From a virus: 64,000 nt of DNA. This document shows, piece after piece, positions 1,339 through 50,793 of the stretch. Position 1 is the stretch's first letter. Each line of letters begins with the position of its first letter. Below the pieces are notes generated by a model. It did no database searches. It saw only the letters and a program-made list of their open reading frames with translations, and was not told where the DNA came from. The stretch lies in IMG/VR virus record IMGVR_UViG_3300012642_000011, positions 96,001-160,000 of that record. One strand, 5' to 3'. Both the position numbers and the translations under genes were made by a program.

Positions 1339-2361
1339 TCATACTGCAGTCAACATCTTCATTTTAGATGTGGATTCAATGGCTGTATAGAACTTTGTCA
1401 CGTTAAAGGACATACGCCCATAGTCATTCCTCAACTTGTCAACTACATTAGCCAATGATTTCAGTGCTCCGTGCCTTTCATTTTCAGATGCTGACTCATC
1501 TGACACCATGTTCAACAATTGCTTTGCTGTTTTCAAAAGTTTCTTCTCTTCCCTAGAGAGAACTCCCCACTTGACTTGCTCCGCGTACTCTTTAGCCGTC
1601 TCCAACTGTGCAGCGAACTCGCTGGAAGCATGTTCTACTTCCTTGATGTCATCTGTAGTCAAAGAATCATCTGGGACATTTTTGATGAAATCGGCTTTAG
1701 AAACAGCAATCTTTTGTTTTCTAGAGAGTTCAATGATCACAGGAGAAGACATGTTAGTAAACTCGGGGTAATCAAAAGTCCATACTGGGTCAAGTTCAAT
1801 TCGTCCTCTTTCTGTGACGGTAGACTCAATAGAAGCAATTGCTCTATTCCTCCTGTCGATGAGATCATTTCTATGATTTCTCTGATTGATCTCCATCTGT
1901 TTCCTCTGGTCTCTTGCAGACATCATCTTAGGAAGATAATGAGCCATCACAAAGAAGGCAGCAACAACTGCAATCAATACAATAGCAATGCCAACAAACC
2001 ATGGAAGGAATGACCAATCTACAGGATCAGGTATAGATTCTGCTGGTGGCGGTGTTGTCTCTACTGCCGTGGCTGGTTCTTGTGTGTCTGTTTCAATGAC
2101 GCCCCCAGCAGGGTTAGCAGATTGTTTATCTTCAAGGTTTCGTACAAAAAAGAAAATAGGTAAAATTAAAAACGAGGATAATACTAAGTAAAGCATAGCA
2201 GATGCTACTTTTCCTTTGAGGACCAAATTCAAAATCATTAAAAGCCAAATAACAAGAAGTATGATGCATGTTAACCATATTAATGAACTGCCTGTTAAAA
2301 TTGCTAATAATGGTACATAGTTTGACAATGTTTCCATGGCTATGGACTTTCTGATGATCAT
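1339..2361 (-). CDS. hypothetical membrane protein
   Basis: 340-aa ORF on the minus strand with multiple TM helices and a charged coiled C-terminal half. Convergent with the upstream gene across a shared hairpin at 1275-1308. Confidence 0.5.
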   Translation of the reverse strand: MIIRKSIAMETLSNYVPLLAILTGSSLIWLTCIILLVIWLLMILNLVLKGKVASAMLYLVLSSFLILPIFFFVRNLEDKQSANPAGGVIETDTQEPATAVETTPPPAESIPDPVDWSFLPWFVGIAIVLIAVVAAFFVMAHYLPKMMSARDQRKQMEINQRNHRNDLIDRRNRAIASIESTVTERGRIELDPVWTFDYPEFTNMSSPVIIELSRKQKIAVSKADFIKNVPDDSLTTDDIKEVEHASSEFAAQLETAKEYAEQVKWGVLSREEKKLLKTAKQLLNMVSDESASENERHGALKSLANVVDKLRNDYGRMSFNVTKFYTAIESTSKMKMLTAV

Positions 2362-2789
2362 GATTTTCCCTATTTTACCAAATGCCTATTTTAACTGTTC
2401 CTATCGGGCGAAAACCTCAACACCATAGTATTTGACAACCCCATCCTACCGTGATACAATAACGAAGTATTACATCAACGATATGAGTGTATGAAAAGAG
2501 GTGGGTGTCATGTCTGCAATGCTTATAAGAGTGAACAGCACATTGCTCTCATTGACGACGCTCTCTTCTAGAAGCCTTGATTCTGGCATCATGCCATGCT
2601 CATTGCCATGCTTGGAAAAAATTGGTAAGACAATTGTAGCCACGCATAGCAATACATGGGGAACATGGGCCAAAACAAGAACAAAATTAAATACAAAAAA
2701 CAAAATAGAAAAGCATCACAGAGATAAGAAGAAAATATCTCCTGTGGTGCTTTTCTACATCCGAAAGAAAGAAAACAAGGAGAATCCTC

Positions 2790-3182
2790 GTGAAAAGAAC
2801 ATCCCTCATCAACGCATTCGGCAATATCCTTCCAACATCTGTGGCAGAGACAACCGAAACTTTTGAACACCTAATCAATGCCAGCAGAGGACATGATCTG
2901 TCCTCTATTGACCCGAAGCAATTATTCGACTTGGCTGAAACCCAAGAAGTTGAATCATCATGGGTGACCAAGAGTTCTATTACTAACGCACATGAAGTAC
3001 ATACAGAAATCTTAGACAGAGCAAACAACACGATTGAATATAGGATTTATACAGGCTTTAGTAATGAAACTGTAGCAGATGAAGATAATAATTTCACTTA
3101 CTATGATCCAAGTGAATGTAGGTTCACCCACAAAGAAGCGACCAAAGTCAACGAAGAGATCAAGAAACTCGTTGCTTTTTGA
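2790..3182 (+). CDS. hypothetical protein (GTG start)
   Basis: GTG start with AAGGAG 7 nt upstream. 130 aa. Confidence 0.4.
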   Translation: MKRTSLINAFGNILPTSVAETTETFEHLINASRGHDLSSIDPKQLFDLAETQEVESSWVTKSSITNAHEVHTEILDRANNTIEYRIYTGFSNETVADEDNNFTYYDPSECRFTHKEATKVNEEIKKLVAF

Positions 3183-3199
3183 GAAAGAGAGATATATCA

Positions 3200-3547
3200 A
3201 TGCCTACCGATACAAGGTGCGGGGACACGTTATGCGAATGCTGTTACCCAGAAAACATTGAAGAACCAGAAGGATGCCTCAAGATCATCCCTGTAAGCAA
3301 AGAAGAAACAATGTTAGCAATGATGACATCAGTATACTTGTGCATTCATATTGAAGCAAACGGGAATACACACATTAAAGGAAAGATCTGTTTAAAGAAT
3401 GGAAAATCAGGATTTGACAAAGAAGACTTTGTTTTCATTCACTCCAACAATAGACGATATCCTGACAACATCACAATGAGCGAATCAGCAATCGATATCG
3501 TGAAGTACGTGGCAGCATATAGGACAAGGAAAAAACTATCAGTTTGA
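3200..3547 (+). CDS. hypothetical Cys-rich protein
   Basis: ATG-start ORF MPTDTRCGDTLCECC... inside the 3179-3547 track ORF. Confidence 0.35.
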   Translation: MPTDTRCGDTLCECCYPENIEEPEGCLKIIPVSKEETMLAMMTSVYLCIHIEANGNTHIKGKICLKNGKSGFDKEDFVFIHSNNRRYPDNITMSESAIDIVKYVAAYRTRKKLSV

Positions 3548-3688
3548 TAAGATAATAAAACTGTTTCTTAGAGATACGAAAAAGAAATAATATACATACT
3601 TCAATCCGTTGAGAGTAGAGAGGGTATGTATTGTAATCATGTATGCAAACATACGAGTTTATTTTAAATTGAGCATAACAGGAGATAG

Positions 3689-4663
<975 letters not shown>

Positions 4664-4680
4664 TTGATAGAAATTGGTAA

Positions 4681-4722
4681 GATCCTGTGAACATGGTCAA
4701 CTCATGTTCACAGGATCTTACT
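4681..4722 (+). terminator. rho-independent terminator-like hairpin after nrdF
   Basis: Inverted repeat aagatcctgtgaacatg...catgttcacaggatctt followed by acttttgct. Confidence 0.5.
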
Positions 4723-4745
4723 TTTGCTCAAGGAGACATTATAGA

Positions 4746-6407
4746 ATGAGAATCAGGAATACAGAGGACTTCATTCAAAGAGCAAAAAGTATTCATGGGG
4801 ACAGGTTTGACTACTCTCCAACGCAGTACACTAAACTCAAAGAAAAAGTGATCATCATCTGTCCTGATCATGGTGAATTCTCTACTTACCCTAACACACA
4901 TTTGGGAAGCAAAGGTGGTACAGGGTGCAAAGAATGCGCTATGGCAACAAGAAGAATGTCTCCTGAAGAGTATATTCAAAAGGCAAAAGAAATCCATGGG
5001 GATAAATTTGATTACTCCCAGACGAGATTTACCAAAATGGCTGACCAGATCACTGTTCTTTGCAGAGAACATGGCGAGTTCACCCAGAATGCTCAAAATC
5101 ATTTACGAGGAATGAACGGTTGCTCTGAATGCAATGGGCAAAGTGTGATCTCTGTACAAGAATATGTCACAAGAGCAAAAGAGAAACATGGAGATCGATT
5201 TGATTACTCCAAAGTGATGCAATTCAAGAACCTTCATGAGAAAATCACTGTCATCTGTAATGAGCACCGTGAATCCTATAGGATTGAAGCCAACTCTCAC
5301 TTAAGAGGAAACAACGGCTGTAGAAAATGTAATAAATATGCCCCATATGATACTGCCAAGTTTGACAACAAGATACAATCTCATGGATCTGGCAGGTATG
5401 ATTACTCCAAGGTTGACTTGAGTTCCTTCAATGTTAAAACATCTTCTCCTATCATCTGCACAATAGATGATCATGGCACATTCTATCAGTCCTTTGATGC
5501 TCACTTTGCTGGCAAGGAAGGGTGTCGTAAATGTGATGAAGCAGGGACATCTAAGCGGGAGAAGGAATTCATTGAATTCATTATGGATGTCTATGATGGC
5601 AGAATCATCACTAATGATAGGAAAGTTCTCAACGGAAAGGAACTTGACATCTATCTTCCAGAGATCAATGTAGCCATTGAATTTAATGGTATTTATTGGC
5701 ATCAGGAAAAATTCTCGGGGAAGAAAAAGCACTCTGAAAAATATTGGGCATGCCATGATCAAGGGATCAGATTGTTAACTGTGTGGGAGGATGATTGGAA
5801 TAATAAGAAAGAGATTGTCAAGAAGCATGTTCAGCATGTGATGGGAATTAATAATCAGAGAAGAATTTATGCAAGGAATACGAATGTCAGCATAGTGGAC
5901 AGGTGGGAAGCATCAGCATTCCATGAGAGTAATCACATTCAAGGATCAGTGAGTGCTTCTGAACATTGGGGTCTGAAAGACAAGGGATCAGGCGTTCTTG
6001 TAGCAATTGCATCCTTCAAGAAGGCAAAGAATGGTTACATATTGGAGAGGTATTCTACGTCTGAACATGTCATTGGTGGTCATTCTAAAATAGTCAAAGC
6101 ATTCATGAAAGAGCATCCGAATTCTATGCTAACGACGTTTGCTGATTTATCTTTTTCTGATGGTGGTTTGTATGAGAAAACAGGATGGATTCAGGATAAG
6201 ATATTGCCTCCTGATTATTACTACATCTTCAGGAATGAGAGGAAGCATAAGTTCGGTTTCAGGAAGAAGAGGTTTAAGAATGATCCTTCGCTTTTTTATG
6301 ATGAATCTTTAACTGAATCACAGTTGGCTCATATCAATGGGATTCAGAGAGTTTATGATTGTGGTAAGATACGTTTTACGTTTCCTTTTCATCAAGACAG
6401 ACCCTGA
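4746..6407 (+). CDS. homing-endonuclease-like protein: N-terminal tandem zinc-ribbon repeats plus Vsr/DUF559-like PD-(D/E)XK core (paralog 1 of 4)
   Basis: Four repeats of the HGD(R/K)FDYS...C..HGEF...H..G..GC..C module. Then ELDIYLPEINVAIEFNGIYWH...GIRLLTVWEDDW, and a C-terminal domain shared with 44348, 47917 and 52738. SD caaggag precedes the ATG at 4746. Inserted between nrdF and nrdE. Confidence 0.7.
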   Translation: MRIRNTEDFIQRAKSIHGDRFDYSPTQYTKLKEKVIIICPDHGEFSTYPNTHLGSKGGTGCKECAMATRRMSPEEYIQKAKEIHGDKFDYSQTRFTKMADQITVLCREHGEFTQNAQNHLRGMNGCSECNGQSVISVQEYVTRAKEKHGDRFDYSKVMQFKNLHEKITVICNEHRESYRIEANSHLRGNNGCRKCNKYAPYDTAKFDNKIQSHGSGRYDYSKVDLSSFNVKTSSPIICTIDDHGTFYQSFDAHFAGKEGCRKCDEAGTSKREKEFIEFIMDVYDGRIITNDRKVLNGKELDIYLPEINVAIEFNGIYWHQEKFSGKKKHSEKYWACHDQGIRLLTVWEDDWNNKKEIVKKHVQHVMGINNQRRIYARNTNVSIVDRWEASAFHESNHIQGSVSASEHWGLKDKGSGVLVAIASFKKAKNGYILERYSTSEHVIGGHSKIVKAFMKEHPNSMLTTFADLSFSDGGLYEKTGWIQDKILPPDYYYIFRNERKHKFGFRKKRFKNDPSLFYDESLTESQLAHINGIQRVYDCGKIRFTFPFHQDRP

Positions 6408-6717: not shown

Positions 6718-9700
6718 ATGTCTGAATTCAATGGAACAACCCACGACAAAGAAGAGAACGTGGATTACCATGAGTTGAACGCCCAGGTGAAACTGATGGG
6801 TGAAGATGGAAAACTTCAGTTGCATAAGGACAAAGAGGCAGCCAGAGCATTCTTCCTCCACCATGTCAATGAGAACACAGTGTTCTTCCACGATCTTGAA
6901 GAGAAACTGGATTACCTCTTCAAGAATGACTACTACGAGAAGGAACTCTTCGACAAGTATGACTTCGATTTCGTGAAGTCACTTTACAAGAAGGCATACG
7001 CTTACAAGTTCCGTTTCCCATCCTTCATGGGAGCATTCAAGTACTACACATCCTATACTCTGAAGACATTCGACGGCAAGAGATATCTTGAACGCTATGA
7101 GGATAGGGTTGTCGTTGTTGCTCTTTACCTTGCTGATGGTGACGAGGATGCTGCAGAGCACTTGCTTGATGAGATGATGGGCGGACGTTTCCAGCCTGCC
7201 ACTCCAACCTTCTTGAATGCAGGAAAGAAGCAGCGTGGTGAGATGGTGTCGTGTTTCGAAGGCGATACACCAATTTCTACACCCCATGGTGAAATTACAA
7301 TCTCCAACATTGTTGAGGGGGATTCAGTTTACACACACGATGGCAGCGTGCAAAAGGTAACAGGAGTTATGTCTCGTGAGGAAAGTGACGGAATAGTTTC
7401 TCTTACTGTTATTGGACAAAAAGAAAAGTTCTCTTCTACTAAAGAGCACCCTGTCCTTGTTTACAGAAAAAACTCATCTCAAGACACCTTAATTGATGGT
7501 GATGGAAGTACTGAGAATGTAAAGTGGATTGCAGCGGGAGAAGTTCTTCCTGGTGATTTCATTGCTCTGTCTGTTCCAAGAAGAAGTTCCGAATCTGTTT
7601 CAGAACTGAAGATTTCAGATTACGTTAAAACGCCATCTACATGGGGTAGGACTCTTGATGTTGATGTAGAAAACGATCTTGTTTACATTGGATCAATCGA
7701 CAAGAAAAACAATAAAAAGAAGGGGTCTAATGTTTTAAAGAACTCATATTCTTTGAAAAACACCATCTCTGTGAACGAAGATTTCGGACGACTTGTAGGA
7801 TACTACATTTCTGAGGGATATGCTCATTACACGAATGGGGTAAATAAGGGAATTCGATTCACTTTCGGATCAAAAGAAGATATCTTTATCAAGGATACCG
7901 TCAATCTGATTGAAAGAATCTTCGGCTTTACGCCTACTGTGAGAGAAAACGTAGATGGCTCAACGAATGTGGCTGCTTGGTCTCAAATTATGGGAGAATT
8001 CTTTGTTTCCCTTATCGGAACTGGATTTAATAAGAAGAGGTTGAACACTCTTCTACTTGATGCTTCTGATGAATTCCTCAAAGGTATGCTTGTAGGATGC
8101 TTCAGAGGGGATGGAACAGTCCTTGACAGAAGCGCAGAAGTCTCTTTGTCCAACCCTGAGATTATTTCTCAATTAAGAACTGCTGCTTTGAGGATTGGAC
8201 TTCTTCCGTATGAGAGAACCTTCTTCAGTGCTTCAGGGTCACCTACATCCACCTTGAAGATTCCTGCTATCAGCGAAAACAATGTTGACTTCATTAAATA
8301 CATTGATAAAAATGCAGATAGATTTGATGGTGTACTTGCCTCTGATCAGTTTAGATTTGCAAGGATCATTGATGGATACGTAATGTATAAAGTAAAGGCA
8401 TCTTCATTCGAAGAAAAAACTACTACTGTTTACAATCTTGAAGTAGAGAACAATCATACCTATGTAGCAAGAGGGTACATTGCTCACAACTGCTTCCTCT
8501 TGAGAACAGAAGACAACCTTGAATCCATTGCAAGAAACATTACCAACGCTTTGCAGTTGTCTAAGCGTGGTGGCGGTGTTGCTTTGAACCTCACCAACGT
8601 TCGTGAGCAGGGTGCTCCTATTAAGAACATTGAGGGACAGTCCTCTGGAATCATTCCTGTCATGAAACTTCTTGAGGATTCATTCTCCTATGCTAACCAG
8701 TTGGGAGCACGTCAGGGAGCAGGTGCAGTGTACTTGAACGCACACCACCCTGACATCATGAGATTCCTTGACACTAAGCGTGAGAACGCAGATGAGAAGA
8801 TCAGGATTAAGACACTTTCCATTGGTATTGTCATTCCTGACATCACTTTTGAACTTGCTAAGCGCAATGATGACATGTATCTGTTCTCACCTTATGATGT
8901 TGAGAAATTCTACGGTAAGCCTTTCAGTGACATCGATATCACGGAAGAGTACTACGATATGGTAGATAACCCCAAGATCCGTAAGCAAAAGATTAAAGCA
9001 CGTTCACTCTTCCAGACCATTGCTGAGCTACAGTTTGAGTCAGGATACCCCTACCTCATGTTTGAGGACAACGTAAACGCGCAGTCACAGTTGGATGGAA
9101 AGGTTACACATTCCAACCTCTGCGTCACAGCAGAGACACAGTTGCTTACAGATTCAGGAAACGTCCGTGCAGGAGACCTCTTTGAATCACAAAATTCCTT
9201 CAACGTCATCGTTGATGAGAGAGCACGTACTATGGATCTTGATGCAGACGGAGTAGCCAGTGTTACATCAACCAAGATGTTCAAGACAGCAGAGAATACT
9301 CCTGTGTTCAAAATGTCCACTATTGAGGGGTATGAGTTAAGAGCAACAGAGTACCATAAGATCTACGTGGAGCGTAAGGACGAGAATGATGATCCTATCC
9401 TTGTGAAGATCCCCTTGGGTGAGGTCAAGCCAGGTGACAAAGTTCTCATTCAACCATCAGAGGGTGCATACGGACACGTTCACAAGCCTGATCTTGCATT
9501 CATTGCAGGATTCATTGCAGGTGAGGGTTCTCTTGTAGAGGACAAGGACTCTAAGTACTCACCATCTGCAAGACTGACAATCAAGCCAAAGAATAAGTCA
9601 GAGATCAGCAAGATCAATAAGATCGTGGAGAACATCTTCTACAGTGATGATGCCATTGGTCTCGTTGATGAGTCCACACGTATTCCTACTTTCACTGAAA

Positions 9701-11298
9701 GCGAGAAGTACAATAAATGGACGCTTTCTTCTACAATCCTTGCGGAAATCCTTAAAAACAATGATTTCACTAAGGATAATAAGGAGATTGTCCCTGACTT
9801 CGTACTCAGAGGAGACAGGTCAACACAGGTTGGCTACCTTTCGGGTCTCTATCAGGCAGATGGTTGCATTACAGGAACATCAAAGTCTGCAACCATTGAA
9901 CTGACTTCCACAAATAGGGAACTTCTCCTTGAAGTTCAGAGGATGCTATTGAACATGAACGTGTTCACTAGGCTGTACCTCTCCCGCAAGGCAGGTAAGG
10001 ATACCCTTCCTGATAGCAAGGGCGGAGAGAAGGAGTATGATGTAGCAGAAGTGTGGAATCTGAAGGCATCTGCACAGGCTGAAGTCGTTGCTCTCTATGA
10101 ACTTCTGAACTGGACAGACAGGCAGCAGAAAGCATGGCAGGAAAAGTCATTGGTATGGGATAAGAACAGAACACCATACAGCACACACCGCTACAAGGCT
10201 GTTGTCAGAGACATTGTTCCTGACGGTGTAGAGGATGTATATGATGTCACTGTAGAAGATGGTCACTCCATTATCTTCAATGGCATTGTCACAGGAAACT
10301 GTTCTGAAATTCTTCAGGTCTCAACTCCGTCAACATTTAATGAAGATGGAAACTATGACCACGTTGGAAGAGACATCTCCTGTAACCTCGCCTCTCTCAA
10401 TGTTGCCAACATGTTTGATTCACCTGATTTTGGTCAGTCAGTGGAAACAGCAGTACGTGCGCTCACAGTAGTGTCAGAACTGTCCAACATCTCATCTGCT
10501 CCATCCATTGAGCGTGGAAACCAGTTGAGTCATGCTATTGGTCTGGGTGCAATGAACCTTCACGGATTCTTTGCACGTGAGCACATCTATTACGCATCTG
10601 AGGAAGCAGTAGACTTCACCAACTTGTACTTCATGTCAGTACGTTACTACGCTATGAAGGCATCCAACAAGATGGCAAAGGAGAAGGGAAAGACATTCTT
10701 CGAGTTTGAGAAGTCAAAGTATGCTACAGGTGAGTTCTTCGACATGTACACAAACGGTCAGTACTCAGAAGTCAAGACTGAGAAGGTCAAAGAACTTCTG
10801 AAGAAGACAAGTATGCATGTGCCTACTGCTGAAGACTGGAAGCAGTTGAAGGAAGATGTGATGAGAGATGGTCTATATAATGCGTACCTGATCGCTGTTG
10901 CGCCAACAGGAAGCATCAGTTACATTTCTTATTCTACTTCTTCTATCCATCCTGTTGCTCAGAACATTGAGGCAAGGAAGGAAGGAAAGATTGGTAGAGT
11001 CTTCTACCCACAGCCATACTTGAGTGAGGAAACTCTGCCTTACTACGCTGATGCATACAAGGTAGGAACTGAAGCCATCATTGATGTGTATGCTGCTGCT
11101 ACACCTCACATTGATCAGGGTGCTTCTTTGACTCTCTTTGTGACTGATGAGGCCACAACCAGAGATCTCAATAAGGCATACATTTATGCATGGAGGAAGG
11201 GTATCAAGACGATTTACTACGTCCGTGTACGTCCTTCCACACTTGCAGGAACAGAGGTTGAGGATGCAAACTCTTACTGTGAGTCATGTCAGGTCTGA
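6718..11298 (+). CDS. nrdE: ribonucleotide reductase class Ib large subunit (NrdE) carrying two inteins
   Basis: NrdE N-terminus. Conserved PTFLNAGKKQRGEMVS | intein | CFLLRTEDN and HSNL | intein | CSEILQV junctions. SD aaggagg upstream. Roughly 720-aa extein after excision. Confidence 0.92.
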   Translation: MSEFNGTTHDKEENVDYHELNAQVKLMGEDGKLQLHKDKEAARAFFLHHVNENTVFFHDLEEKLDYLFKNDYYEKELFDKYDFDFVKSLYKKAYAYKFRFPSFMGAFKYYTSYTLKTFDGKRYLERYEDRVVVVALYLADGDEDAAEHLLDEMMGGRFQPATPTFLNAGKKQRGEMVSCFEGDTPISTPHGEITISNIVEGDSVYTHDGSVQKVTGVMSREESDGIVSLTVIGQKEKFSSTKEHPVLVYRKNSSQDTLIDGDGSTENVKWIAAGEVLPGDFIALSVPRRSSESVSELKISDYVKTPSTWGRTLDVDVENDLVYIGSIDKKNNKKKGSNVLKNSYSLKNTISVNEDFGRLVGYYISEGYAHYTNGVNKGIRFTFGSKEDIFIKDTVNLIERIFGFTPTVRENVDGSTNVAAWSQIMGEFFVSLIGTGFNKKRLNTLLLDASDEFLKGMLVGCFRGDGTVLDRSAEVSLSNPEIISQLRTAALRIGLLPYERTFFSASGSPTSTLKIPAISENNVDFIKYIDKNADRFDGVLASDQFRFARIIDGYVMYKVKASSFEEKTTTVYNLEVENNHTYVARGYIAHNCFLLRTEDNLESIARNITNALQLSKRGGGVALNLTNVREQGAPIKNIEGQSSGIIPVMKLLEDSFSYANQLGARQGAGAVYLNAHHPDIMRFLDTKRENADEKIRIKTLSIGIVIPDITFELAKRNDDMYLFSPYDVEKFYGKPFSDIDITEEYYDMVDNPKIRKQKIKARSLFQTIAELQFESGYPYLMFEDNVNAQSQLDGKVTHSNLCVTAETQLLTDSGNVRAGDLFESQNSFNVIVDERARTMDLDADGVASVTSTKMFKTAENTPVFKMSTIEGYELRATEYHKIYVERKDENDDPILVKIPLGEVKPGDKVLIQPSEGAYGHVHKPDLAFIAGFIAGEGSLVEDKDSKYSPSARLTIKPKNKSEISKINKIVENIFYSDDAIGLVDESTRIPTFTESEKYNKWTLSSTILAEILKNNDFTKDNKEIVPDFVLRGDRSTQVGYLSGLYQADGCITGTSKSATIELTSTNRELLLEVQRMLLNMNVFTRLYLSRKAGKDTLPDSKGGEKEYDVAEVWNLKASAQAEVVALYELLNWTDRQQKAWQEKSLVWDKNRTPYSTHRYKAVVRDIVPDGVEDVYDVTVEDGHSIIFNGIVTGNCSEILQVSTPSTFNEDGNYDHVGRDISCNLASLNVANMFDSPDFGQSVETAVRALTVVSELSNISSAPSIERGNQLSHAIGLGAMNLHGFFAREHIYYASEEAVDFTNLYFMSVRYYAMKASNKMAKEKGKTFFEFEKSKYATGEFFDMYTNGQYSEVKTEKVKELLKKTSMHVPTAEDWKQLKEDVMRDGLYNAYLIAVAPTGSISYISYSTSSIHPVAQNIEARKEGKIGRVFYPQPYLSEETLPYYADAYKVGTEAIIDVYAAATPHIDQGASLTLFVTDEATTRDLNKAYIYAWRKGIKTIYYVRVRPSTLAGTEVEDANSYCESCQV
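7252..8490 (+). mobile_element. intein 1 in NrdE (413 aa, with LAGLIDADG homing endonuclease)
   Basis: Starts CFEGDTPI and ends YIAHN before extein CFLL. Internal LAGLIDADG-like motifs LVGYYISEGYA and LVGCFRGDGTV. Confidence 0.8.
9121..10299 (+). mobile_element. intein 2 in NrdE (393 aa, with LAGLIDADG homing endonuclease)
   Basis: Starts CVTAETQLLTDSG and ends IVTGN before extein CSEILQV. Motifs IAGFIAGEGSL and YLSGLYQADGCI. Confidence 0.75.
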
Positions 11299-11348
11299 TC
11301 TATTTTAAATAGATAGATGTAAACTTGATGACAATTGAATAATAAGGT

Positions 11349-11390
11349 GAAAGAGGGTGAGAATCTAATTCTCACCCTCTTTTGCGTATA
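11349..11390 (+). terminator. terminator after nrdE
   Basis: aagagggtgagaatctaattctcaccctctt hairpin followed by a T-rich tail. Confidence 0.6.
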
Positions 11391-11524
11391 CACAACTTCG
11401 CTTCTTTTGCAGAAATGATTTCCTAGTCCATGCTGGATCGGGGTTGATTGGCATCAATAGTTTAGATCGTGTGTGAGATTAGAGAATCATCATGTGTGTT
11501 CATCTGAAAACATGGGGAGGGATA

Positions 11525-12271
11525 ATGGTCAAGTATCACGTGAGCAGCAAAACTGGCGAGATGAACAGATGCAGGGCAGATAAGATTGAATGCCCCTTGG
11601 GTTCAGTACAGCATTTTGAGAACATGAAGGAGGCACATTCTTTTTCTGAGGAAGTTTTGGAGAGATCATTCTCTTCTGTGTCGTCCTTGTCTTCTACAAA
11701 TCATTCTTCTCTTGTATCAACATGGAGAAATTCTCTTTCTGATGATGAGAGGGATGCTTGGGAATCGTATGGTTCCTTTGAGCATGGTGAGATCAATGAT
11801 GCTTTGAGACGTGATGATGTGGGCAGTTTATCTGATGATCAAAGAAAAGTGATTGATAACATGGATAAAGCGTTGGCGAGGTGCCCTCGTAGAAAATCAA
11901 ATCATACTCTTTTTCGTGGGGTGAAGACAGCAAATTCCGATCTTCCTCGCAAGACTGACATGAATCCTGTAGAATGGGTGAAGAAGCATATCGGGGAGGC
12001 TGGTAACGAGGTTGTCTTCAATGAGTTCGTGTCTACTTCTACATCTGAAGACATATCTCATGAGTTCTCTGGTATGAATGCTCCTGATTATATCTCTGGT
12101 GTTCTGATGAAGATTGATACTACTCAATCAGCGAAGTGGAATGAGGATGGATCTTATGAGGAAGAGGTTACCCTTGCCAGAGGAACAAAGTTCAGGGTTA
12201 TCAGTGTTGATATGGATCACAAGGTAGAGGGATATTCAAGACCATTGATCCATCTCGAAGAGATCTCTTAA
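11525..12271 (+). CDS. putative mono-ADP-ribosyltransferase fused to the shared N-terminal His/Cys motif domain
   Basis: R-S-E type ART signature: HTLFRGV (Arg), FVSTSTSE (STS) and YEEEVTLARGTKFRVISV (ExE ARTT loop). N-terminus MVKYHVSSKTGEMNRCRADKIECP...HFENMKEAHSF matches the 7-member family motif. SD ggggaggg upstream. Confidence 0.6.
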   Translation: MVKYHVSSKTGEMNRCRADKIECPLGSVQHFENMKEAHSFSEEVLERSFSSVSSLSSTNHSSLVSTWRNSLSDDERDAWESYGSFEHGEINDALRRDDVGSLSDDQRKVIDNMDKALARCPRRKSNHTLFRGVKTANSDLPRKTDMNPVEWVKKHIGEAGNEVVFNEFVSTSTSEDISHEFSGMNAPDYISGVLMKIDTTQSAKWNEDGSYEEEVTLARGTKFRVISVDMDHKVEGYSRPLIHLEEIS

Positions 12272-12378
12272 TATGAGATCGTTAATTCCAAAAACGCTTG
12301 ATGTTTTCATTGATACCGTTACACGAAAGCGCGTAAAGCGGCGAGGTCTTCAGCCTCGCTGATGTAAGCGCAAGTGTA

Positions 12379-12780
12379 TTATTTCCAGTGGCCTTGCTTT
12401 TTCAGGTACTTATCAACATGATCAGCACTCACATCGCCAATAGTAGCAGCATAATAACCACCACTCCACAAATAATGACGACCACCCCAATAAAATCTTC
12501 TCAAATGATCCCCCTGCATCTCCCACAAATGATGAGAACTCAAAGACTTCAAACGGTTCACTAAACCAGAAACAGAATAAGTCCCAGACATCCTCACTAC
12601 CAAATGAACATGATCCCCATCTTCAACAGCAACACGCTCTAACTTGCATGAAGACTTCGACACAGCATACTCAATCGCCCTCACCACATCACCCTCAATA
12701 CCACTAAAACACCCCCTACGAAACTTCGTAGCAAAAACAAAATGATAACGCAAATTCTGAACAGCACCCATCACAACCAA
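12379..12780 (-). CDS. tnpA: IS200/IS605 family transposase TnpA (Y1 HUH)
   Basis: HVHLVV HUH motif and the catalytic-Tyr region YWGGRHYLWSGGYYAATIG. 133 aa. Confidence 0.85.
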   Translation of the reverse strand: MVVMGAVQNLRYHFVFATKFRRGCFSGIEGDVVRAIEYAVSKSSCKLERVAVEDGDHVHLVVRMSGTYSVSGLVNRLKSLSSHHLWEMQGDHLRRFYWGGRHYLWSGGYYAATIGDVSADHVDKYLKKQGHWK

Positions 12781-12823
12781 CCTTTTGATATAATAAGATA
12801 AGATAGCCTATTATATCAAGGAG

Positions 12824-14125
12824 GTGACAATCATGGCACAACGCACAAGCGCACCAAAAACCCTCACAGAAGAAGCCAGACTTGCCAAAAACAAGAGAAT
12901 CAAAGAAGCAGGAAAAGCAACTCGTGAACGCAGAAAAACCATGATTGTCAAAGTGTATGACCTAAAAATCGTACAATCTTCCATGAATAAACAGCAAAAA
13001 GAGGCTATTAAAAGTATTTTCCATGAGGCTAAATGGATTCGCAATGCTGCCCTTGCAGCAGAACGTTTTGATCTTGACTACATCAAAGAACTCAAAGGTG
13101 AAGTTGAGGTAAAAGTCCCCAACGGAGATACTGAGAAAAGAGCAATCAAACATCTTGGAAGCCAAATGCAGCAAAGCGTGATAACTCAATTGAGCAATGA
13201 TCGCAAATCATTATCTGCATTGAAGAAGAATGGTCGCAAGATTGGAAAACTAAAGTTTGTTCGCAATGTCGATTCTATCAATCTCAAACAATATGGCGTG
13301 ACTTATGATCTGATTCCTAATTCAAAAGGGATGATGACTAAAATCCGTGTTCAGAACATTCCCGGCAGATTACGTGTTCGCGGTTATGAGCAATTGTGTG
13401 CTGATAGTCTTGAGTTTGCGAATGCTAAATTAGTGTATCGTGCTGATGGTTATCATTTAGTAGTGACCACTTATCAGCCACGAGCAGTTAAGGTTGCACC
13501 TACGAATAAAATCGGTGTGGACATGGGTGTAAAGAATGCTTTAACTCTTGATAATGGTGAGGTTGTTAACGCGATTATTACTGGCAAACAGGAGAGGATG
13601 GCGAGATTGCAGAGAAAACTGTCTCGTCAGGTAAAGAACTCCAACAGTTATCGCAAGACTTTGGCTAAGATCAAGAGAGAGTATCAGAATACTGATCATT
13701 TGAAGAATGAGTTTGCTAATCAATTAGTAAGCAGGTTAACTAAGGATAGTGTAGTGTTCTTCCAAGATGAAATGTTAGTATCGTGGAAGAACAAGAATTC
13801 GAAAGCACGTGGTTCTAAGAAGATCCATCATGGTGTGCTTGGTCGTGTTAAAGCGCGCTTGAAAAATCATGAGAATGCGGTAATGCTGCCTAAGTGGGTG
13901 GCTACTACTGCGTGGTGTTCTCCTTGTGGTGTCTTGACGAAGCATGATGTTAATATGAGTGTTTTCTTGTGTTCTTCTTGTGGTTTTAGTGAGGATCGTG
14001 ATTCTCATGCTGCGAGGAATATGGTTATTCTTGGTGAAAGGTACTTGAGTTTGGTCACCTCTGGAACGGAGGGTTGTGCTGGTGGAGGGATTGTTAGACT
14101 TAAGAATGATCTGTATAAGGTCTGA
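12824..14125 (+). CDS. tnpB: TnpB (IS605 OrfB family RNA-guided nuclease)
   Basis: 433 aa. C-terminal zinc finger CSPCGV...CSSCGF and RuvC-like DRDSHAARN. SD aaggagg upstream. Confidence 0.85.
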   Translation: MTIMAQRTSAPKTLTEEARLAKNKRIKEAGKATRERRKTMIVKVYDLKIVQSSMNKQQKEAIKSIFHEAKWIRNAALAAERFDLDYIKELKGEVEVKVPNGDTEKRAIKHLGSQMQQSVITQLSNDRKSLSALKKNGRKIGKLKFVRNVDSINLKQYGVTYDLIPNSKGMMTKIRVQNIPGRLRVRGYEQLCADSLEFANAKLVYRADGYHLVVTTYQPRAVKVAPTNKIGVDMGVKNALTLDNGEVVNAIITGKQERMARLQRKLSRQVKNSNSYRKTLAKIKREYQNTDHLKNEFANQLVSRLTKDSVVFFQDEMLVSWKNKNSKARGSKKIHHGVLGRVKARLKNHENAVMLPKWVATTAWCSPCGVLTKHDVNMSVFLCSSCGFSEDRDSHAARNMVILGERYLSLVTSGTEGCAGGGIVRLKNDLYKV

Positions 14126-14201
14126 TTAAGCATATTCCTGTGAAGCCAGAAACGGCGTTGTCTTTAGCATCGCCGTAGTTCATTTCTGTGTTTGATAAGA
14201 T

Positions 14202-15872
14202 ATGTTCGATTCCATTCCGTGTCGAGAAAGAGTGAGTATGATTATCATCCCTGTGCCAGTGATATTGCGGGTTTCTGATAGGCACCCTCTATTGCGATCA
14301 ATCTCTGAAACAATCGAAGTAAATAGATACGACGTTCCTTCCTATAATATCGAATATGATGACATTGATAGGGATATACTGAATATTTTACTTGAAAGTG
14401 CTGAAGAGTTAAACATCAAGTATCTGATCAAATCATTGAAGTATGCATTGAGAACTTTGGATGGTGAAGAGTTAGCAATCCCTCATCCTTGTGTATCGTT
14501 GTTCATGATCATGCACTACATTTTAAAGAACTCACATCATGGATGGGTCTATCATAAAAAAGGTTCTGACGACACTGCATACTATCAGCCTTATGCTATT
14601 GATGGAATAGGCAGGTCTTTTTCTTCAGGCGATGATATGAGTATTAATTTTGTTTCTTTTTCGATTAAAGAAGGAGCACATGTGCATTCTAAAGTGCAGC
14701 TTCTTAGATCTCGTGGATTCCCAAAGAATATCCTTCAAGAGAATGATCTCTATATTGGCAACGACGAATTGATTCAAAAGTATTATGATACTTTAGATCT
14801 CCTTTTTAATGATCAAAATGGTTTGATGCGTCAAGGGTATGGTCAGCAGATCATTGTGAACGGTGTTGAGTATGAAGAAGATATCAGAGCTGAGTATAGG
14901 TCTTCAGAGAAGTATAGTGCGCGTGTAAAGAACAGGAAGGCAGTGTTGGAATCTATTGTTACAGATAAGATTGCAAAGAATCCTTCGATTTACAAAGAGT
15001 CATATGAGAACAGCCTATATAAAAACCCGCAGAAAATAGAAGATGTGGTTGATATCCCAGCATTGCTGGATGTGAAAGTCTTTGATCTTACAGCGGAAGA
15101 ATTTCTCATATGTAGTGCTTTCAACATACAAAGATACATTTATGATGATTCTATTAAAGATAAACTCATCTTGCCTTCTGCACATAAAATGTTGATTGAT
15201 GTACTAACAAGCCAGGATTCACAAGGGATTAGTGACATCATCTATGGAAAAGGTCAAGGAACATTAATCCTTTGCAAAGGTGAACCCGGTATAGGAAAGA
15301 CATTGACTGCTCAAGTTGTCTCAGAAGTCTTACACAAGCCTTTGTACACCATGGATTCTTCTTCCATTATTTCATCATGGGACATTCGTAAAAAATTGGC
15401 TAAGTCTTATGATTTGGTTTACAAATGGAATGGAATTCTCCTCTTTGATGAAGTAGATACACTCATCAGTCGCCGTGGCACTGATCTTGAAAAGAACAGA
15501 GTAACTGCTGAACTACTTAGATCCCTCGAAGAATTCAAAGGAATCGCTTTCTTGACAACGAACAGGCCACAGGATATTGATGATGCTTTTCTATCCCGTT
15601 GCATTGCCATCATTGATTATGGCGTGCCTGTAGGTGATGATGCTATTAAGGCATGGAAATCTATCGGATTGCAGGTGATGGGAGAAGAAATCATTGATGA
15701 TGCTTTAGCAGAGGCTTTGGAGCGTGATTATCACGATATGCCCCCAAGAGACATGAGGCAGTTGTTAAGACTATCATTCCAGCTGGCAACTTATCAAGGC
15801 GAACGTGTTACAAAGGAAATCATTGATTCCTGTGCTGTCTTCAGAGGATATGCCCCACATCCTACTCTTTGA
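14202..15872 (+). CDS. AAA+ ATPase domain protein (start uncertain; may be 14238)
   Basis: Walker A GEPGIGKT, Walker B ILLFDEVD, sensor-1 TTN. Unknown N-terminal 330 aa. Lies immediately downstream of the IS right end. Confidence 0.65.
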   Translation: MFDSIPCRERVSMIIIPVPVILRVSDRHPLLRSISETIEVNRYDVPSYNIEYDDIDRDILNILLESAEELNIKYLIKSLKYALRTLDGEELAIPHPCVSLFMIMHYILKNSHHGWVYHKKGSDDTAYYQPYAIDGIGRSFSSGDDMSINFVSFSIKEGAHVHSKVQLLRSRGFPKNILQENDLYIGNDELIQKYYDTLDLLFNDQNGLMRQGYGQQIIVNGVEYEEDIRAEYRSSEKYSARVKNRKAVLESIVTDKIAKNPSIYKESYENSLYKNPQKIEDVVDIPALLDVKVFDLTAEEFLICSAFNIQRYIYDDSIKDKLILPSAHKMLIDVLTSQDSQGISDIIYGKGQGTLILCKGEPGIGKTLTAQVVSEVLHKPLYTMDSSSIISSWDIRKKLAKSYDLVYKWNGILLFDEVDTLISRRGTDLEKNRVTAELLRSLEEFKGIAFLTTNRPQDIDDAFLSRCIAIIDYGVPVGDDAIKAWKSIGLQVMGEEIIDDALAEALERDYHDMPPRDMRQLLRLSFQLATYQGERVTKEIIDSCAVFRGYAPHPTL

Positions 15873-34522: not shown

Positions 34523-34826
34523 GGACGTTGTATTTTCTTCGATAGTCACTGACTAACGAAAAAAGAATTCGGAAAAATGGTCTATAGTATTAATGGCAAA
34601 ATACTCACTCTTTAGTGGGAGATCGCGGTTCGAATCCGCGTAGACCTTCGATTAATAATAACGTGAACACTGATACCATGAATTCTTATATTTCATCAAA
34701 CTATAGCGGGGACACAATTATATTATTTATGCGCCATCTTCACCCAAAGCCCCCATCTCTGATATCACGCCGTGGATTATTATGCTAATTGTTATTCCAT
34801 TTGCATCTTAATTTAGAGAAGTCAGA

Positions 34827-41836: not shown

Positions 41837-41908
41837 GCTTCTGTAGGTTAACGGTAAACCAGATGACTCTAAATCATTGACATGCGGGTTCGACTCCCGT
41901 CAGAAGCA
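41837..41908 (+). tRNA. tRNA with anticodon CTA (amber/UAG suppressor candidate)
   Basis: Acceptor gcttctg/cagaagc (perfect). D-arm ggtt-aacggta-aacc. Anticodon stem gatga/tcatt, loop ctCTAaa (U33, A37). T-arm gcggg-ttcgact-cccgt. Discriminator A. Confidence 0.65.
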
Positions 41909-42010
41909 CGAAGATAAAGTAAATCTCTTAAGTTGAGTTTACTCTTTCTTCTGTCTACTTGACAACACAAGAAGTATAGTGTACAATAGAAGACAACAAC
42001 AACAAAATAT

Positions 42011-44347: not shown

Positions 44348-45838
44348 ATGAATTTCTTAGAAGCACATCCAGAAGTTTCATCATCATGGTCTGAAAATAA
44401 TGCATTCTCTCCTGACTCAATCTCCAAAGCATCAAGGAAAAAAGTCATCATCATCTGTGATAAACATGGTGACTATGAAATCAGGGCAGATTCTTACCAC
44501 AATGGCAACAGATGCAAACAATGTGCAGCAGAAGTCAAAGCACAGAGCAAGATCACGAAAGCAATTGCTCAACATGGAAGCGGTCTAGAAAAGTACCCCT
44601 CGCTAAAAAAGTATGCAGTAAGAGATTTCCACGCTAAAGATGATCACAAGATACCATTCCGCTGTCCCGATTGCGCACACGAATGGACGCTATCGCCCTA
44701 TAGTCAAATGATTATCAACGGCTGCCCACAATGTGACCCACAGGCAAAGATAAGAATGAAGAATCACATTCCTACTATGAAGTCTTTGACACATGGAAAC
44801 ATAGCAGACCAGAAACCAGAGATAGTTGCACAATGGTCGCCAAAAAATGATCTAACAACAGAACAAGTCAGTTGCGGTTCTGGTTATCGCGCTACATGGA
44901 TATGTGAGATCAATCCGAACCATGAATGGGAATCCTTTGTTTACCAGAGAGCAGGAAAGAAGGAAACAGGATGCCCACAATGCAATATATCTGGAATAGA
45001 ATCAGAAATTGGTCAACTCCTATCCGATCACCATGTTGACTTCATTCGTTCCAATCGAAAAATTATTGCACCCTATGAACTGGACATATACATTCCAGAG
45101 AAAAATGTAGCCATAGAAGCCAATGGTGTCTATTGGCATACAGAAAAACAAGGAAAAGATAGGAACTATCACTACAACAAGTGGAAACAATGCCATGATC
45201 AAGGAATCCAACTGATCACCATCTGGGAAGATGACTGGATGATGAAAAAAGAACTCATTAAAAAGATGATTCTTCACAAGATTGGACTATCCCATCAGAA
45301 AAGTATCTACGCACGTACATGTTCAGTCAAAGATGTTCCCACTATAGAATCCAATAGATTCTTGAATACTTACCATATTCAAGGAGAAGCAAGAGGAAGT
45401 GTGAAGATTGGACTTCACCATGAAGGAGAACTGGTTGCTATCTCCGTATGGAAGAAACTTAAAGAAGATGAATGGGAATTATCTCGCTATGCAACAAGCA
45501 TGAACGTTGTTGGTGGAGCAAGCAAAGTCATCAAAGCATTCATTCGTCAACACTCGCCAAGCAAGATTGTCACATTCGCTGACCATGAAGTATCTGATGG
45601 TGGACTATATGAAAAATTAGGGTTCACTGCCGACAAGGAGATCAAGCCTGATTACAAGTATGTTATAGACAACAAAAGAATACACAAGTTTAATTATAGA
45701 TTGAAGAGGTTCAAGAGCGATCCCACACTCATCTACGAAGAAGGATTGAGTGAATCACAGTTGGCTCAACTGAATAACATTGATAGAGCATGGGATTGCG
45801 GTAAAACACGATATATTCTGCAGTTACCCTTGATTTGA
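44348..45838 (+). CDS. homing-endonuclease-like protein (paralog 2 of 4)
   Basis: Zinc-ribbon repeats (C..C ... C..C) plus ELDIYIPEKNVAIEANGVYWH...GIQLITIWEDDW and the shared C-terminal domain (IVTFADHEVSDGGLYEKLGF...HKFNYRLKRFK...WDCGKTRY). Confidence 0.7.
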   Translation: MNFLEAHPEVSSSWSENNAFSPDSISKASRKKVIIICDKHGDYEIRADSYHNGNRCKQCAAEVKAQSKITKAIAQHGSGLEKYPSLKKYAVRDFHAKDDHKIPFRCPDCAHEWTLSPYSQMIINGCPQCDPQAKIRMKNHIPTMKSLTHGNIADQKPEIVAQWSPKNDLTTEQVSCGSGYRATWICEINPNHEWESFVYQRAGKKETGCPQCNISGIESEIGQLLSDHHVDFIRSNRKIIAPYELDIYIPEKNVAIEANGVYWHTEKQGKDRNYHYNKWKQCHDQGIQLITIWEDDWMMKKELIKKMILHKIGLSHQKSIYARTCSVKDVPTIESNRFLNTYHIQGEARGSVKIGLHHEGELVAISVWKKLKEDEWELSRYATSMNVVGGASKVIKAFIRQHSPSKIVTFADHEVSDGGLYEKLGFTADKEIKPDYKYVIDNKRIHKFNYRLKRFKSDPTLIYEEGLSESQLAQLNNIDRAWDCGKTRYILQLPLI

Positions 45839-47791: not shown

Positions 47792-47830
47792 AAATAGACC
47801 AGTAAATTACTGGTCTATTTTTGTTTTTGA
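47792..47830 (+). terminator. strong terminator
   Basis: aaatagaccagtaaattactggtctattt followed by ttgtttttg. Confidence 0.7.
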
Positions 47831-47916
47831 TGGTCGTTTTTATCTTACTTCTCACCATACTTGTATACTTCTCCCAAATGGTGTGCTCTAAGCATAGATC
47901 TTGTTATCATATATGT

Positions 47917-49665
47917 ATGAAGCCCCAACTGTATGAGTATTTTTTAGATCATCCCGAAATGAAAGCAATGTGGTCACGTCGCAATAGTGACGAACTGTTG
48001 TCTAAAACGGCTGGAAGCAATGTGAAGGCACTATGGTCTTGCTCTACTTGTGGGCAAGAATCATTAATCCCTATTTACCGCAAGGTCAACAATCCTCTTA
48101 CATGTTCTACATGCAATGGGAGCAAGGTGGTTCAAGGGGTGAATGATTTGGAAACAATGTATCCCGAAATAGCGTCTGAATGGTCGTCGAGGAATGAGAA
48201 GAAACCTTCAGAAGTAAAATATAGTTCTGCAATCACTGCTGAATGGGATTGTAAAAATGGGCACTCTTTTACTATGTATCTTCCTGAAAGGACGAGATCG
48301 ACCAGGAAATCTCGGGGGTGCCCTGAGTGTAGAAGACAAGAAATCCAGGAAGACAAAGAGAATAACCCTAATAAGCGCTCTATTGCATCGGGAAATGGAT
48401 CAGCGGAGATGCAGCAGATGTTTGTGGAATCATTAGGAAAGATCAAATTTCCAGGAGCGAGGTCAGGCACACTTTGCTTATGGAGATGCTCGAAGGGGCA
48501 TGAATGGAGGCAAGTTCCTAAGAGATTTAATGGATGTGAAATCTGCGATCCGCCCCAGTATATTCTACCGCAGTCCAGGAACAAAAACATTTTAAAGGTA
48601 TCCAATTCGATCCTCCACACTCATCCTCATGCTATAGAATTATGGAATGATTCAAGAAGTCCAGAATCAGTAACTAAAGGATCATCCTATCGCGCTCAAT
48701 GGAAGTGTGCTAAAAACCATCAATGGGAACAATCTGTCTACACAGTGCTCCGGTCCCTCGACAAAGGTCACAAAGCATGCCCTCATTGCTCTTCCATGAT
48801 TTCTGCTGCTGAAAAGAAAATCTCTGAGATTGTAAAGGAGGCAATGAATCCATTGGGTTTAACTGTCCTCACTTCCCATCGTAAATTGATTCCTCCCTAT
48901 GAAGTAGACATTTATGTTCCTGAGAAGAAGATTGCTATTGAATACAATGGTCTCTACTGGCATAGTGATGCTAATCGAAAGGGTAAAGACAGGAATTATC
49001 ACTACAACAAGTGGAAGAAATGCAAAGATCAAGGTGTCCAATTGATCACCGTGTGGGAGGATGATTGGCGTGACCATGAGGACATTGTGACATCAATGTT
49101 GTTGACCAAGTTGGGTGTTTCTGATGCTCAGAAAGTCAATGCTCGTGATTGTGTGATCGTAGAATCTTCTTATACCGATTCTTCTGCATTTCTTGATGCT
49201 CACCATATTCAAGGTTCAGCAAGAGGGAGTTTCTATCTTTCCTTATTGCATGATGGTGTCATGGTGGCAACTTCGGTGTGGGTGAAGAGGGGGTCAGACC
49301 TTGTTCTTGAGCGCTACGCAACCTCTGTGAGCGTTCGTGGTGGCATGGGTAAACTGTTGAAGGCTGGGTGCATAGAAGGCCGTCAGAGGGGCGCACAGCG
49401 CGTTGTGACTTTTGCTGATCATGGTGTTTCTGATGGTGGATTGTATGAGCGCCTTGGTTTCGTTGCTGACAAGGTGTTGAAGCCTGATTATGCGTATGTT
49501 GTAGATGGTGATAGGAAGCATAAGTTCAATTACAGGTTGAAGAGGTTCAAGAATGATCCAGTATTGAGATATGTGGACGGTTTATCTGAATCCCAGTTGG
49601 CTGAGTTGAATGAGATTCCTCGTGTATGGGATTGTGGGAAGACGCGGTATGTGATGGGTCTTTGA
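47917..49665 (+). CDS. homing-endonuclease-like protein (paralog 3 of 4; the 47821 start is unlikely because it overlaps the terminator)
   Basis: Zinc-ribbon repeats, then KLIPPYEVDIYVPEKKIAIEYNGLYWHSD...GVQLITVWEDDW, then the shared C-terminal domain. Confidence 0.65.
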   Translation: MKPQLYEYFLDHPEMKAMWSRRNSDELLSKTAGSNVKALWSCSTCGQESLIPIYRKVNNPLTCSTCNGSKVVQGVNDLETMYPEIASEWSSRNEKKPSEVKYSSAITAEWDCKNGHSFTMYLPERTRSTRKSRGCPECRRQEIQEDKENNPNKRSIASGNGSAEMQQMFVESLGKIKFPGARSGTLCLWRCSKGHEWRQVPKRFNGCEICDPPQYILPQSRNKNILKVSNSILHTHPHAIELWNDSRSPESVTKGSSYRAQWKCAKNHQWEQSVYTVLRSLDKGHKACPHCSSMISAAEKKISEIVKEAMNPLGLTVLTSHRKLIPPYEVDIYVPEKKIAIEYNGLYWHSDANRKGKDRNYHYNKWKKCKDQGVQLITVWEDDWRDHEDIVTSMLLTKLGVSDAQKVNARDCVIVESSYTDSSAFLDAHHIQGSARGSFYLSLLHDGVMVATSVWVKRGSDLVLERYATSVSVRGGMGKLLKAGCIEGRQRGAQRVVTFADHGVSDGGLYERLGFVADKVLKPDYAYVVDGDRKHKFNYRLKRFKNDPVLRYVDGLSESQLAELNEIPRVWDCGKTRYVMGL

Positions 49666-49734: not shown

Positions 49735-50793
49735 ATGTCGGCTAAGTATGCTTTAAACACGGCAACAGGTGAAATCACGCTTTGTCGTAGCACTGGTCAA
49801 CGTCCTTGCCCACATGCCTCTGCAGATCATTACTCTTCGAAAGATGAAGCCCAGAATGCTTTTGAATCACTCATGAAAAAACAAGAAACGTTGTCATTGC
49901 AGAGAAAAAGCACAACATCACCATCTTATGACAATCTTCCATGGTTATCTCATGTAGGCGATCATTTTGATCAGATTGATGCTCACTATGAGATCACGGA
50001 TAGGTTTGAACACAATGGTCAAGGAATGGTTCTTCTACACAGTGACAAATCACCCTATAGCAATAGAGACATCTCGGCGTTCACAGAAGATGGCGCTGAA
50101 GTTAGCACCAGTGAAGTCAGGGATGAGGAAACAGGTGAGAGAATAGGGTTCTTGAAGACAGTCCAGTACTCTGATGCTGCTTTAGAAGCATCCTTTGGGA
50201 AAGAGGATGATTACATGACATATTTAAAATATGGTGAACGGTATCATTCTCTGTTCTATGATTTTGACGATGATCCAAAAGAGAGCATAGAGAACATGAA
50301 AAAATTGTGGAAGTCTGTGGCATCCTCTTCTGTCGTTAGATCCCATCCCCAGTACAGTGTCACATCTATGGGAATGAAACATAGACATGCAAATGGTAGA
50401 AGTCTTAATCCGCCTGAAAGCATGGAAGAGATAGAATCTGACCTTAAAGAGTCATCTAAATTCTTCCAAGAGGAATATATGAAACGATTTGATCCCTCCA
50501 CGAGATCATATGCTTTCATTGAATACTCCGAAATCAATGAAAGCCATAGAGGAACAGGGCTTGGCAAAAAGATGTACCTATCATCTGCGCGTGCTTTAGG
50601 AGCAAGGGGCCGTATTCTTGCGTCTTCAACCTTACAAACAGACAATGCTCAAGGTCTATGGAAATCATTGCTGAAAGACGACAATGACCACATTAGAATC
50701 CACTCCTATGACTATAAGGGAGAAAAGAAAAACAATTACTTGCTTGATTATAGAGATAAGAGTATTGATCAAGTCAAGGATGGTGAAGAATAA
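49735..50793 (+). CDS. shared N-terminal motif domain fused to a GNAT-like acetyltransferase domain (tandem paralog 1)
   Basis: N-terminus MSAKYALNTATGEITLCRSTGQRPCPHASADHYSSKDEAQNAFE. C-terminal GNAT motif A HRGTGLGKKMY. SD aaggagg upstream. Confidence 0.6.
   Translation: MSAKYALNTATGEITLCRSTGQRPCPHASADHYSSKDEAQNAFESLMKKQETLSLQRKSTTSPSYDNLPWLSHVGDHFDQIDAHYEITDRFEHNGQGMVLLHSDKSPYSNRDISAFTEDGAEVSTSEVRDEETGERIGFLKTVQYSDAALEASFGKEDDYMTYLKYGERYHSLFYDFDDDPKESIENMKKLWKSVASSSVVRSHPQYSVTSMGMKHRHANGRSLNPPESMEEIESDLKESSKFFQEEYMKRFDPSTRSYAFIEYSEINESHRGTGLGKKMYLSSARALGARGRILASSTLQTDNAQGLWKSLLKDDNDHIRIHSYDYKGEKKNNYLLDYRDKSIDQVKDGEE

Follow-up and report, generated by a model that had tools for sequence, protein, structure and literature searches.

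The subject of this study is a gene found in a 64,000-nucleotide stretch of viral DNA (positions 96,001 to 160,000 of IMG/VR record IMGVR_UViG_3300012642_000011, hereafter the window), whose 248-residue product joins a short N-terminal module carrying four invariant His and Cys residues (the HCCH module, or N-module) to an ADP-ribosyltransferase (ART) domain. Homology and fold together show that residues 63–248 form a mono-ADP-ribosyltransferase of the R-S-ExE type within the Alt/VIP2/C3 group. Based on sequence and modelling, we consider it probable that its product is an active effector built of two modules and made by a large phage rich in tRNA genes. The N-module, the paralogous effector family that carries it and the short sequence motif shared upstream of its genes are new with respect to the libraries searched.

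The sequence-only reading of this locus had proposed an ART with an R-S-E triad, preceded by a conserved HCCH module and adjoined by an IS605 element. All three parts of the triad are present as quoted, namely F130-R131-G132, S170-T171-S172 and E212-E213-E214-V-T-L-A-R-G-T-K-F-R-V (from 12158), and they exceed a chance resemblance, as an alignment of 40 ART domains has no invariant columns other than R131, S170, E212 and E214, and PF03496 (ADPrib_exo_Tox) matches residues 63–230 with an E-value of 7.4e-13 (48.7 bits against a curated cutoff of 23.4). The 40-sequence profile was compared with solved ARTs and matched Lmo0066, Vis, VIP2, CdtA, Certhrax, ExoT, iota Ia, C2-I, C3, SpvB and HopU1 (E 4e-27 to 1e-12), all three motifs falling in register; PHROGs returned partial matches to ART-containing families, including the Alt-like RNA polymerase ADP-ribosyltransferase family (E 8.8e-9).

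Structure prediction, which had been set beforehand as the check on the fold, bore out this assignment. The AlphaFold model, built from a 48-sequence alignment (predicted local distance difference test score, pLDDT, 90; predicted template modelling score 0.72), presents the ART fold with its helical N-terminal subdomain and split beta-sandwich core, and Foldseek matched it to C3bot, CDTa, VIP2, Plx2A, Vis, iota Ia and ExoS in the PDB at a probability of 1.0. The model superposes on Lmo0066 with a root-mean-square deviation of 2.3 Å, and this superposition and the profile alignments suggest that the R, STS and ExE residues cluster in space. The predicted viral structures that resemble the model most closely are ARTs joined to a portal, MuF or minor-capsid protein and T4-like RNA polymerase ADP-ribosylases.

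In characterised ARTs the region-1 Arg binds the phosphates of nicotinamide adenine dinucleotide (NAD), and the ExE form of the third motif marks the arginine-specific members of the clade, i.e. iota, C2, VIP2, Vis, ExoS/T, SpvB, Tre1 and Alt. Since the ExE form occurs in these arginine-specific members, arginine mono-ADP-ribosylation is the default prediction for the window protein, by analogy only, with E214 as the predicted catalytic Glu.

HMMER, run exhaustively against 1.8 billion representative proteins, yielded 108 relatives. The nearest of these outside the immediate family are proteins of 450–1100 aa that combine ART and GNAT domains, in some cases with ART-PolyVal (36–46% identity), one of which is encoded on a 132-kb contig beside WhiB and NADAR genes. 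Among deposited phages the best matches are Alt-like genes of Acinetobacter phages, at no more than approximately 26% identity over 59% of the length. No match was obtained in IMG/VR scans with the ART protein and a six-sequence alignment, nor in a GTDB genome scan with the ART alignment.

The claim of a conserved HCCH module was likewise upheld. H5, C16, C23 and H30 are invariant in 35 sequences, with the pattern H-x10-C-x6-C-x6-H, and residues 1–50 are modelled as three short strands and a helix with a pLDDT of 82–93. The four residues would form a metal site, most likely for zinc. The module always stands at the very start of the protein, with a low-complexity linker behind it, and it also occurs alone as a 65-aa protein. 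In other contigs the domains behind it comprise ART (15 of 34 proteins), Fic, 2H phosphoesterase, DUF7226 and DUF7695. The N-module had no match in Pfam, NCBIfam, PHROGs or PDB sequences and no tblastn match at E ≤ 1 in 50,697 deposited phage genomes, and a word-indexed protein search with its profile returned only three small proteins. No description of an HCCH module in phage ARTs was found in the literature searched, including the most relevant comparative papers, which is no proof of novelty.

A hidden Markov model of the module identified seven N-module open reading frames (ORFs) in the window (Table 1); four of these were part of its seed, and the other three were found independently with E-values of 3e-11 to 4e-8. 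Only the ORF at 11525 carries an ART domain; three other strict-motif N-module proteins were ruled out as ARTs by profile comparison, and PDB sequence searches with two other paralogues gave no match. In the tandem paralogues at 49735–50793 and 50793–51821, where KYALN... replaces KYH..., H5 is changed to Ala and a His is gained after the second Cys, which looks like a swap of ligands. These two proteins also share a C-terminal G-T-G-L-G-K-K-M-Y that resembles the acetyl-CoA loop of GNAT enzymes, the sole database hint being a weak match to LPD11.

All seven N-module genes are preceded, 12–45 nt 5′ of the start codon, by TAGAG[AG], usually in the form T[AT]TAGAGA, compared with none of 41 other gene starts (Fisher exact approximately 1e-8; background rate 0.0006 per nt). 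The surrounding upstream sequence is otherwise unconserved among these genes, and the motif is also present 32 nt 5′ of a 44%-identical ART orthologue in contig L002, a diverged relative of the window. The simplest reading of the sequence makes the motif a promoter element of the −10 type or an operator, and the N-module genes would therefore represent a co-regulated set. The gap between motif and ATG is just 6–7 nt in two genes, which suggests that leaderless transcripts are possible.

Taking these observations together with what is known of the family, a mechanism may be proposed in which R131 and S170-T-S172 would hold NAD+, E212 of the ExE motif would position the arginine acceptor and E214 would promote cleavage of the nicotinamide-ribose bond. 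A single ADP-ribose would thus be moved from NAD+ to arginines of at least one host protein during infection, and this could serve to take over the host or to counter its defences, as with T4 Alt and ModA; by analogy, an Alt/Mod-like role in reprogramming host RNA polymerase or translation is plausible. Residues 1–50 would constitute a small, probably zinc-binding HCCH domain serving as a common N-terminal adaptor on co-regulated effector enzymes, which would most likely send them to one place, either into the virion, to be injected along with the DNA, or to a host structure that all of them share. An adaptor for delivery or targeting is favoured by the strictly N-terminal position of the module, the linker that follows it and its interchangeable partner enzymes; this assignment is nevertheless a tentative one, at well short of even odds. 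The partner enzymes are of the kinds that, in other phages, are joined to MuF, portal or polyvalent proteins, and it has been argued that phage ARTs of this class and polyvalent effectors are commonly packaged in the head and injected (PMC9503650, PMC5512222).

A number of points weigh against this interpretation. The neighbours of the ART gene are ribonucleotide reductase, an insertion sequence (IS) element, an AAA ATPase and an S26 peptidase, with no head-morphogenesis genes among them, and because these are not head genes an argument for head packaging from gene context fails. The metal site is deduced from the four invariant residues only, and the shared upstream motif could be explained by co-duplication with the module. 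ModB, of the same clade, can attach RNA, so that the step from ExE to arginine is one of analogy only (PMC9503650). Finally, the solved structure nearest to the model, that of Lmo0066, belongs to a toxin used between bacteria, for which an ADP-ribosylhydrolase (ARH) serves as the immunity protein.

The last of these points, the best structural match, favours another reading, in which the protein is not an agent of host takeover but a toxin that acts in cell-cell or phage-phage conflict, through abortive infection, through superinfection exclusion or as half of an ART-ARH pair of the Lmo0066 or Tre1-Tri1 kind. We regard this as unlikely, since no ARH (PF03747) or macro domain gene is present in the approximately 40 scanned ORFs of the window, the ART protein has no secretion or delivery domain (LXG, PAAR, Rhs), its flanks are ribonucleotide reductase and an IS, and the L002 orthologue is without an immunity-like partner of known fold. 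Moreover, six further N-module effectors share the upstream motif with the ART, an arrangement that suits a phage-run programme better than a two-gene cassette. Modification of nucleic acids or attachment of RNA (RNAylation as by T4 ModB, or ADP-ribosylation of DNA or tRNA), in place of protein arginine, appears just as improbable. It would be consistent with membership of the R-S-E clade that includes ModB (PMC9503650), with the 38 tRNA genes of the window and, in related contigs, with the fusion of the N-module to a 2H phosphoesterase and the position of ART genes beside PNKP-like, HAD and 2H genes of RNA-repair type. That the ART gene is decaying or inactive through IS605 insertion or a premature stop is very improbable. 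The window copy does end four codons before two near-identical copies, and one of these, in contig L001, has an in-frame 108-bp deletion in its ART gene. However, none of the four catalytic residues has been lost and the fold is complete; the missing tail, QYDR, comes after the final strand of the domain, the orthologue P0003 ends at the equivalent position and the left end of the IS lies past the ART stop codon.

Returning to the proposed effector, the window ART shares its fold, its R/STS/ExE set and its phage-encoded nature with the T4 Alt/VIP2-type phage ARTs (R-S-E clade; PF03496, phrog_802), but is far shorter at 248 aa and bears the HCCH module in place of a MuF, portal or protease fusion. 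Unlike the head-packaged Alt-like ARTs, it has neither a fusion to a head protein nor a head-gene neighbourhood (MuF, portal, prohead protease, terminase). In contrast to Lmo0066 (PDB 8za7_B), a Listeria ART-ARH toxin, and Tre1 (6drh_B), it resides in a phage genome and has no secretion-associated domain, and, unlike in ART-ARH pairs, no ARH gene adjoins it among the scanned window ORFs. Another parallel is offered by the polyvalent proteins (PMC5512222): the nearest ART relatives mix ART, GNAT and ART-PolyVal, and the partners of the N-module (ART, Fic, 2H-SAK) represent the same effector repertoire. Here, however, the effectors are separate small genes, each with an N-module and the upstream motif, instead of one giant polypeptide, and the window ART protein contains only the N-module and one ART domain.

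It is possible, though we rate the full proposal as doubtful, that the HCCH module is an undescribed metal-binding adaptor that marks a phage effector regulon (ART, Fic, 2H phosphoesterase, kinase-like, GNAT-like and other enzymes) for capsid loading and co-injection or for docking on one host machine, with T[AT]TAGAGA timing expression as a promoter or operator. In the capsid-loading version, the N-module would be a structured equivalent of the T4 capsid-targeting sequence. Were the proposal correct, this phage lineage would possess a modular build and delivery of host-takeover enzymes that replaces MuF, portal and polyvalent fusions. ARTs are frequent in phages and the window ART adds little as an enzyme; it is the architecture that is the useful part. 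Should the module serve as a tag for delivery or targeting, its sequence would offer a simple means of finding effector sets in a group of large phages so far unsampled, and the module itself would be a candidate portable tag for bringing cargo into virions or onto a host target. Several of its partner domains are of unknown function, and the tag therefore points to new host-modifying enzymes.

With regard to the gene itself, a second ATG in the same frame is found further 5′, at 11492, but 11525 is the better start: GGGGAGGG is placed 3 nt upstream of it and the homologues all begin with M-x-K-Y-H. Two near-identical metagenome copies terminate in ...EEISQYDR, and the early stop of the window copy results from a CAA to TAA change plus a 2-nt insertion. 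Truncation by the IS was rejected, as relatives with the same IS retain the longer C-terminus and the early stop is a point mutation. The L001 allele (705–1355) encodes 216 aa rather than 248 aa, its deletion, which corresponds to window positions 11656–11763, removing the linker together with the initial helix of the ART domain. The L002 orthologue has the same architecture and is located upstream of the same 135-aa and S26-peptidase genes; the ART gene, judged by sequence comparison, is thus conserved and syntenic.

The IS605 neighbour was also correctly recognised: both TnpA and TnpB were matched, and the left end of the element lies approximately 45–50 nt past the ART stop, leaving the gene untouched. 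As in other IS200/IS605 elements of the IS605 type, a Y1 TnpA and a TnpB with a Cas12f-like TNB domain are transcribed divergently, with candidate hairpins near both ends. Candidate target sites just left of the left hairpin are TTGAT (12310–12314) and TTAC (12319–12322). Two metagenome contigs that are 99% identical here have the IS at the same place, and because these near-identical contigs also carry the IS and offer no empty site, its ends and target site are approximate. The gene order in L002 is ART, 146 aa, 135 aa and S26 peptidase, whereas in the window it is ART, IS, AAA ATPase, 137 aa and S26 peptidase; the IS is therefore an insertion in this lineage, and a later, neutral one downstream of the ART gene. 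A second copy was not found in the window, a GTDB genome scan with TnpB gave no close relative, and Rfam returned no match over 11000–15000, hence no known TnpB guide RNA family was detected.

Table 1. Coordinates of the features discussed, as positions in the 64,000-nucleotide window.
Feature	Position	Strand	Basis or remark
Ribonucleotide reductase small subunit	3689-4663		PF00268
Ribonucleotide reductase large subunit ORF, 1526 aa, unusually long	6718-11298		Immediately 5′ of ART gene
Upstream motif TTAGAGAA, core TAGAGA beginning 45 nt before ART ATG	11479..11486	+	Common to all seven N-module genes
Shine-Dalgarno-like GGGGAGGG	11514..11521	+	Read from sequence; 3 nt 5′ of ATG 11525
ART gene, 248 aa plus stop codon: N-module, linker, ART domain	11525..12271	+	ORF list, PF03496, AF2 (AlphaFold) model
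HCCH mini-domain, residues 1-50	11525..11674	+	Predicted; strands 3-7, 13-16, 28-31, helix 34-50
Ser-rich linker, residues 51-62, SSVSSLSSTNHS	11675..11710	+	pLDDT down to 59 in residues 51-60
ART catalytic domain, residues 63-248, N-terminal helical subdomain then beta core	11711..12268	+	
R131 codon, region-1 Arg in F130-R131-G132	11915..11917	+	Invariant; aligned to YRG of Vis, Lmo0066
S170-T171-S172 codons, STS motif	12032..12040	+	S170 invariant, T171 at least 90% conserved
E212-E213-E214 codons, ExE of ADP-ribosylating turn-turn (ARTT) loop	12158..12166	+	Aligned to E-x-E of Vis, Lmo0066
IS200/IS605-family element, ends approximate	12315..14184		L001 99.4% identical up to 14184, then diverges
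Candidate left-end subterminal hairpin of IS	12329..12371		Inverted repeat I2
tnpA, Y1 (HUH) transposase, 133 aa	12379..12780	-	PF01797 E 2.8e-26
tnpB, 433 aa	12824..14125	+	PF01385 E 5.9e-12, PF07282 E 9.3e-8, phrog_506 E 8e-37
Candidate right-end hairpin of IS	14152..14176		Inverted repeat I11
T[AT]TAGAG[AG] before other N-module genes	34812-34819, 49689-49696, 50749-50756, 55484-55491, 58824-58831 (-), 59488-59495		
N-module paralogue, 273 aa	34827..35648	+	C-terminal domain non-ART; weak kinase-like and crAss-cargo hints
Variant-N-module paralogue, 352 aa	49735..50793	+	H5 to Ala, His after second Cys (CPH); weak LPD11 match
Paralogue with same variant N-module as 49735..50793 ORF, 342 aa	50793..51821	+	
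N-module paralogue, 620 aa	55498..57360	+	C-terminal part matches phrog_2319 (function unknown)
N-module paralogue, 433 aa	57486..58787	-	
N-module paralogue, 337 aa	59528..60541	+	
NucS-type endonuclease	62949-63662		PF01939 and PF21003

Arrays of N-module genes are also present in unrelated phage-like contigs, with six or seven genes in L005, three in L007 and two in L002. The L007 trio includes two ARTs and one 2H enzyme; by position (1570–5822 and 8406–10044), an N-module plus 2H-SAK gene is followed in a tandem array by three ART genes, two of which have the N-module. Around this array lie PNKP-like and HAD genes and the trio of isochorismatase, small ORF and NUDIX/NrtR genes that is also present in L001. 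ART genes and NAD-salvage genes of the isochorismatase and NUDIX/NrtR types thus recur together in these two related contigs. TnpB-like genes recur in contigs with N-module arrays, both in L005 (4631–6061 and 14403–15767, one of them adjoining a resolvase-type gene) and in the window.

L001 is 99.4% identical to the window throughout the ART gene and the IS, and the two part precisely at the right end of the IS (L001 3255–9524, compared with the window from 14185 onward). Past this point it encodes a DNA methyltransferase, NAPRTase, NAD synthase, an isochorismatase/PncA-like protein and NUDIX-NrtR, none of which is present in the window. The break stems either from a rearrangement linked to the IS or from a chimeric assembly across copies of it.

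The window has a G+C content of 41.8% and looks like a piece of a very large phage genome, whose host is probably Gram-positive. None of the deposited phages is close to it, and blastn of the ART locus gave no match. Its tRNA genes are spread over 29892–58988, interspersed with the N-module genes; they include one with a CTA anticodon, predicted to be of suppressor type (41837–41909), and one with an odd anticodon loop (34578–34649). Other products are a PIF1-type helicase, an S26 peptidase, a PASTA-domain protein, a G5-domain protein and a SNF2 helicase, with a weak match to the C-terminal domain of the DNA polymerase III delta subunit. The NucS family, which we take to be typical of Actinobacteria and Archaea, provides a hint at the host lineage. 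By inspection only, two intein-like insertions appear to interrupt the large subunit of ribonucleotide reductase. Three large paralogous ORFs (44348–45838, 47821–49665 and 52738–54675) contain repeated DUF4379 treble-clef zinc-finger domains, two of them with weak REase_MTES_1575 matches as well, and these ORFs, lying among the tRNAs, may be homing-endonuclease-like genes.
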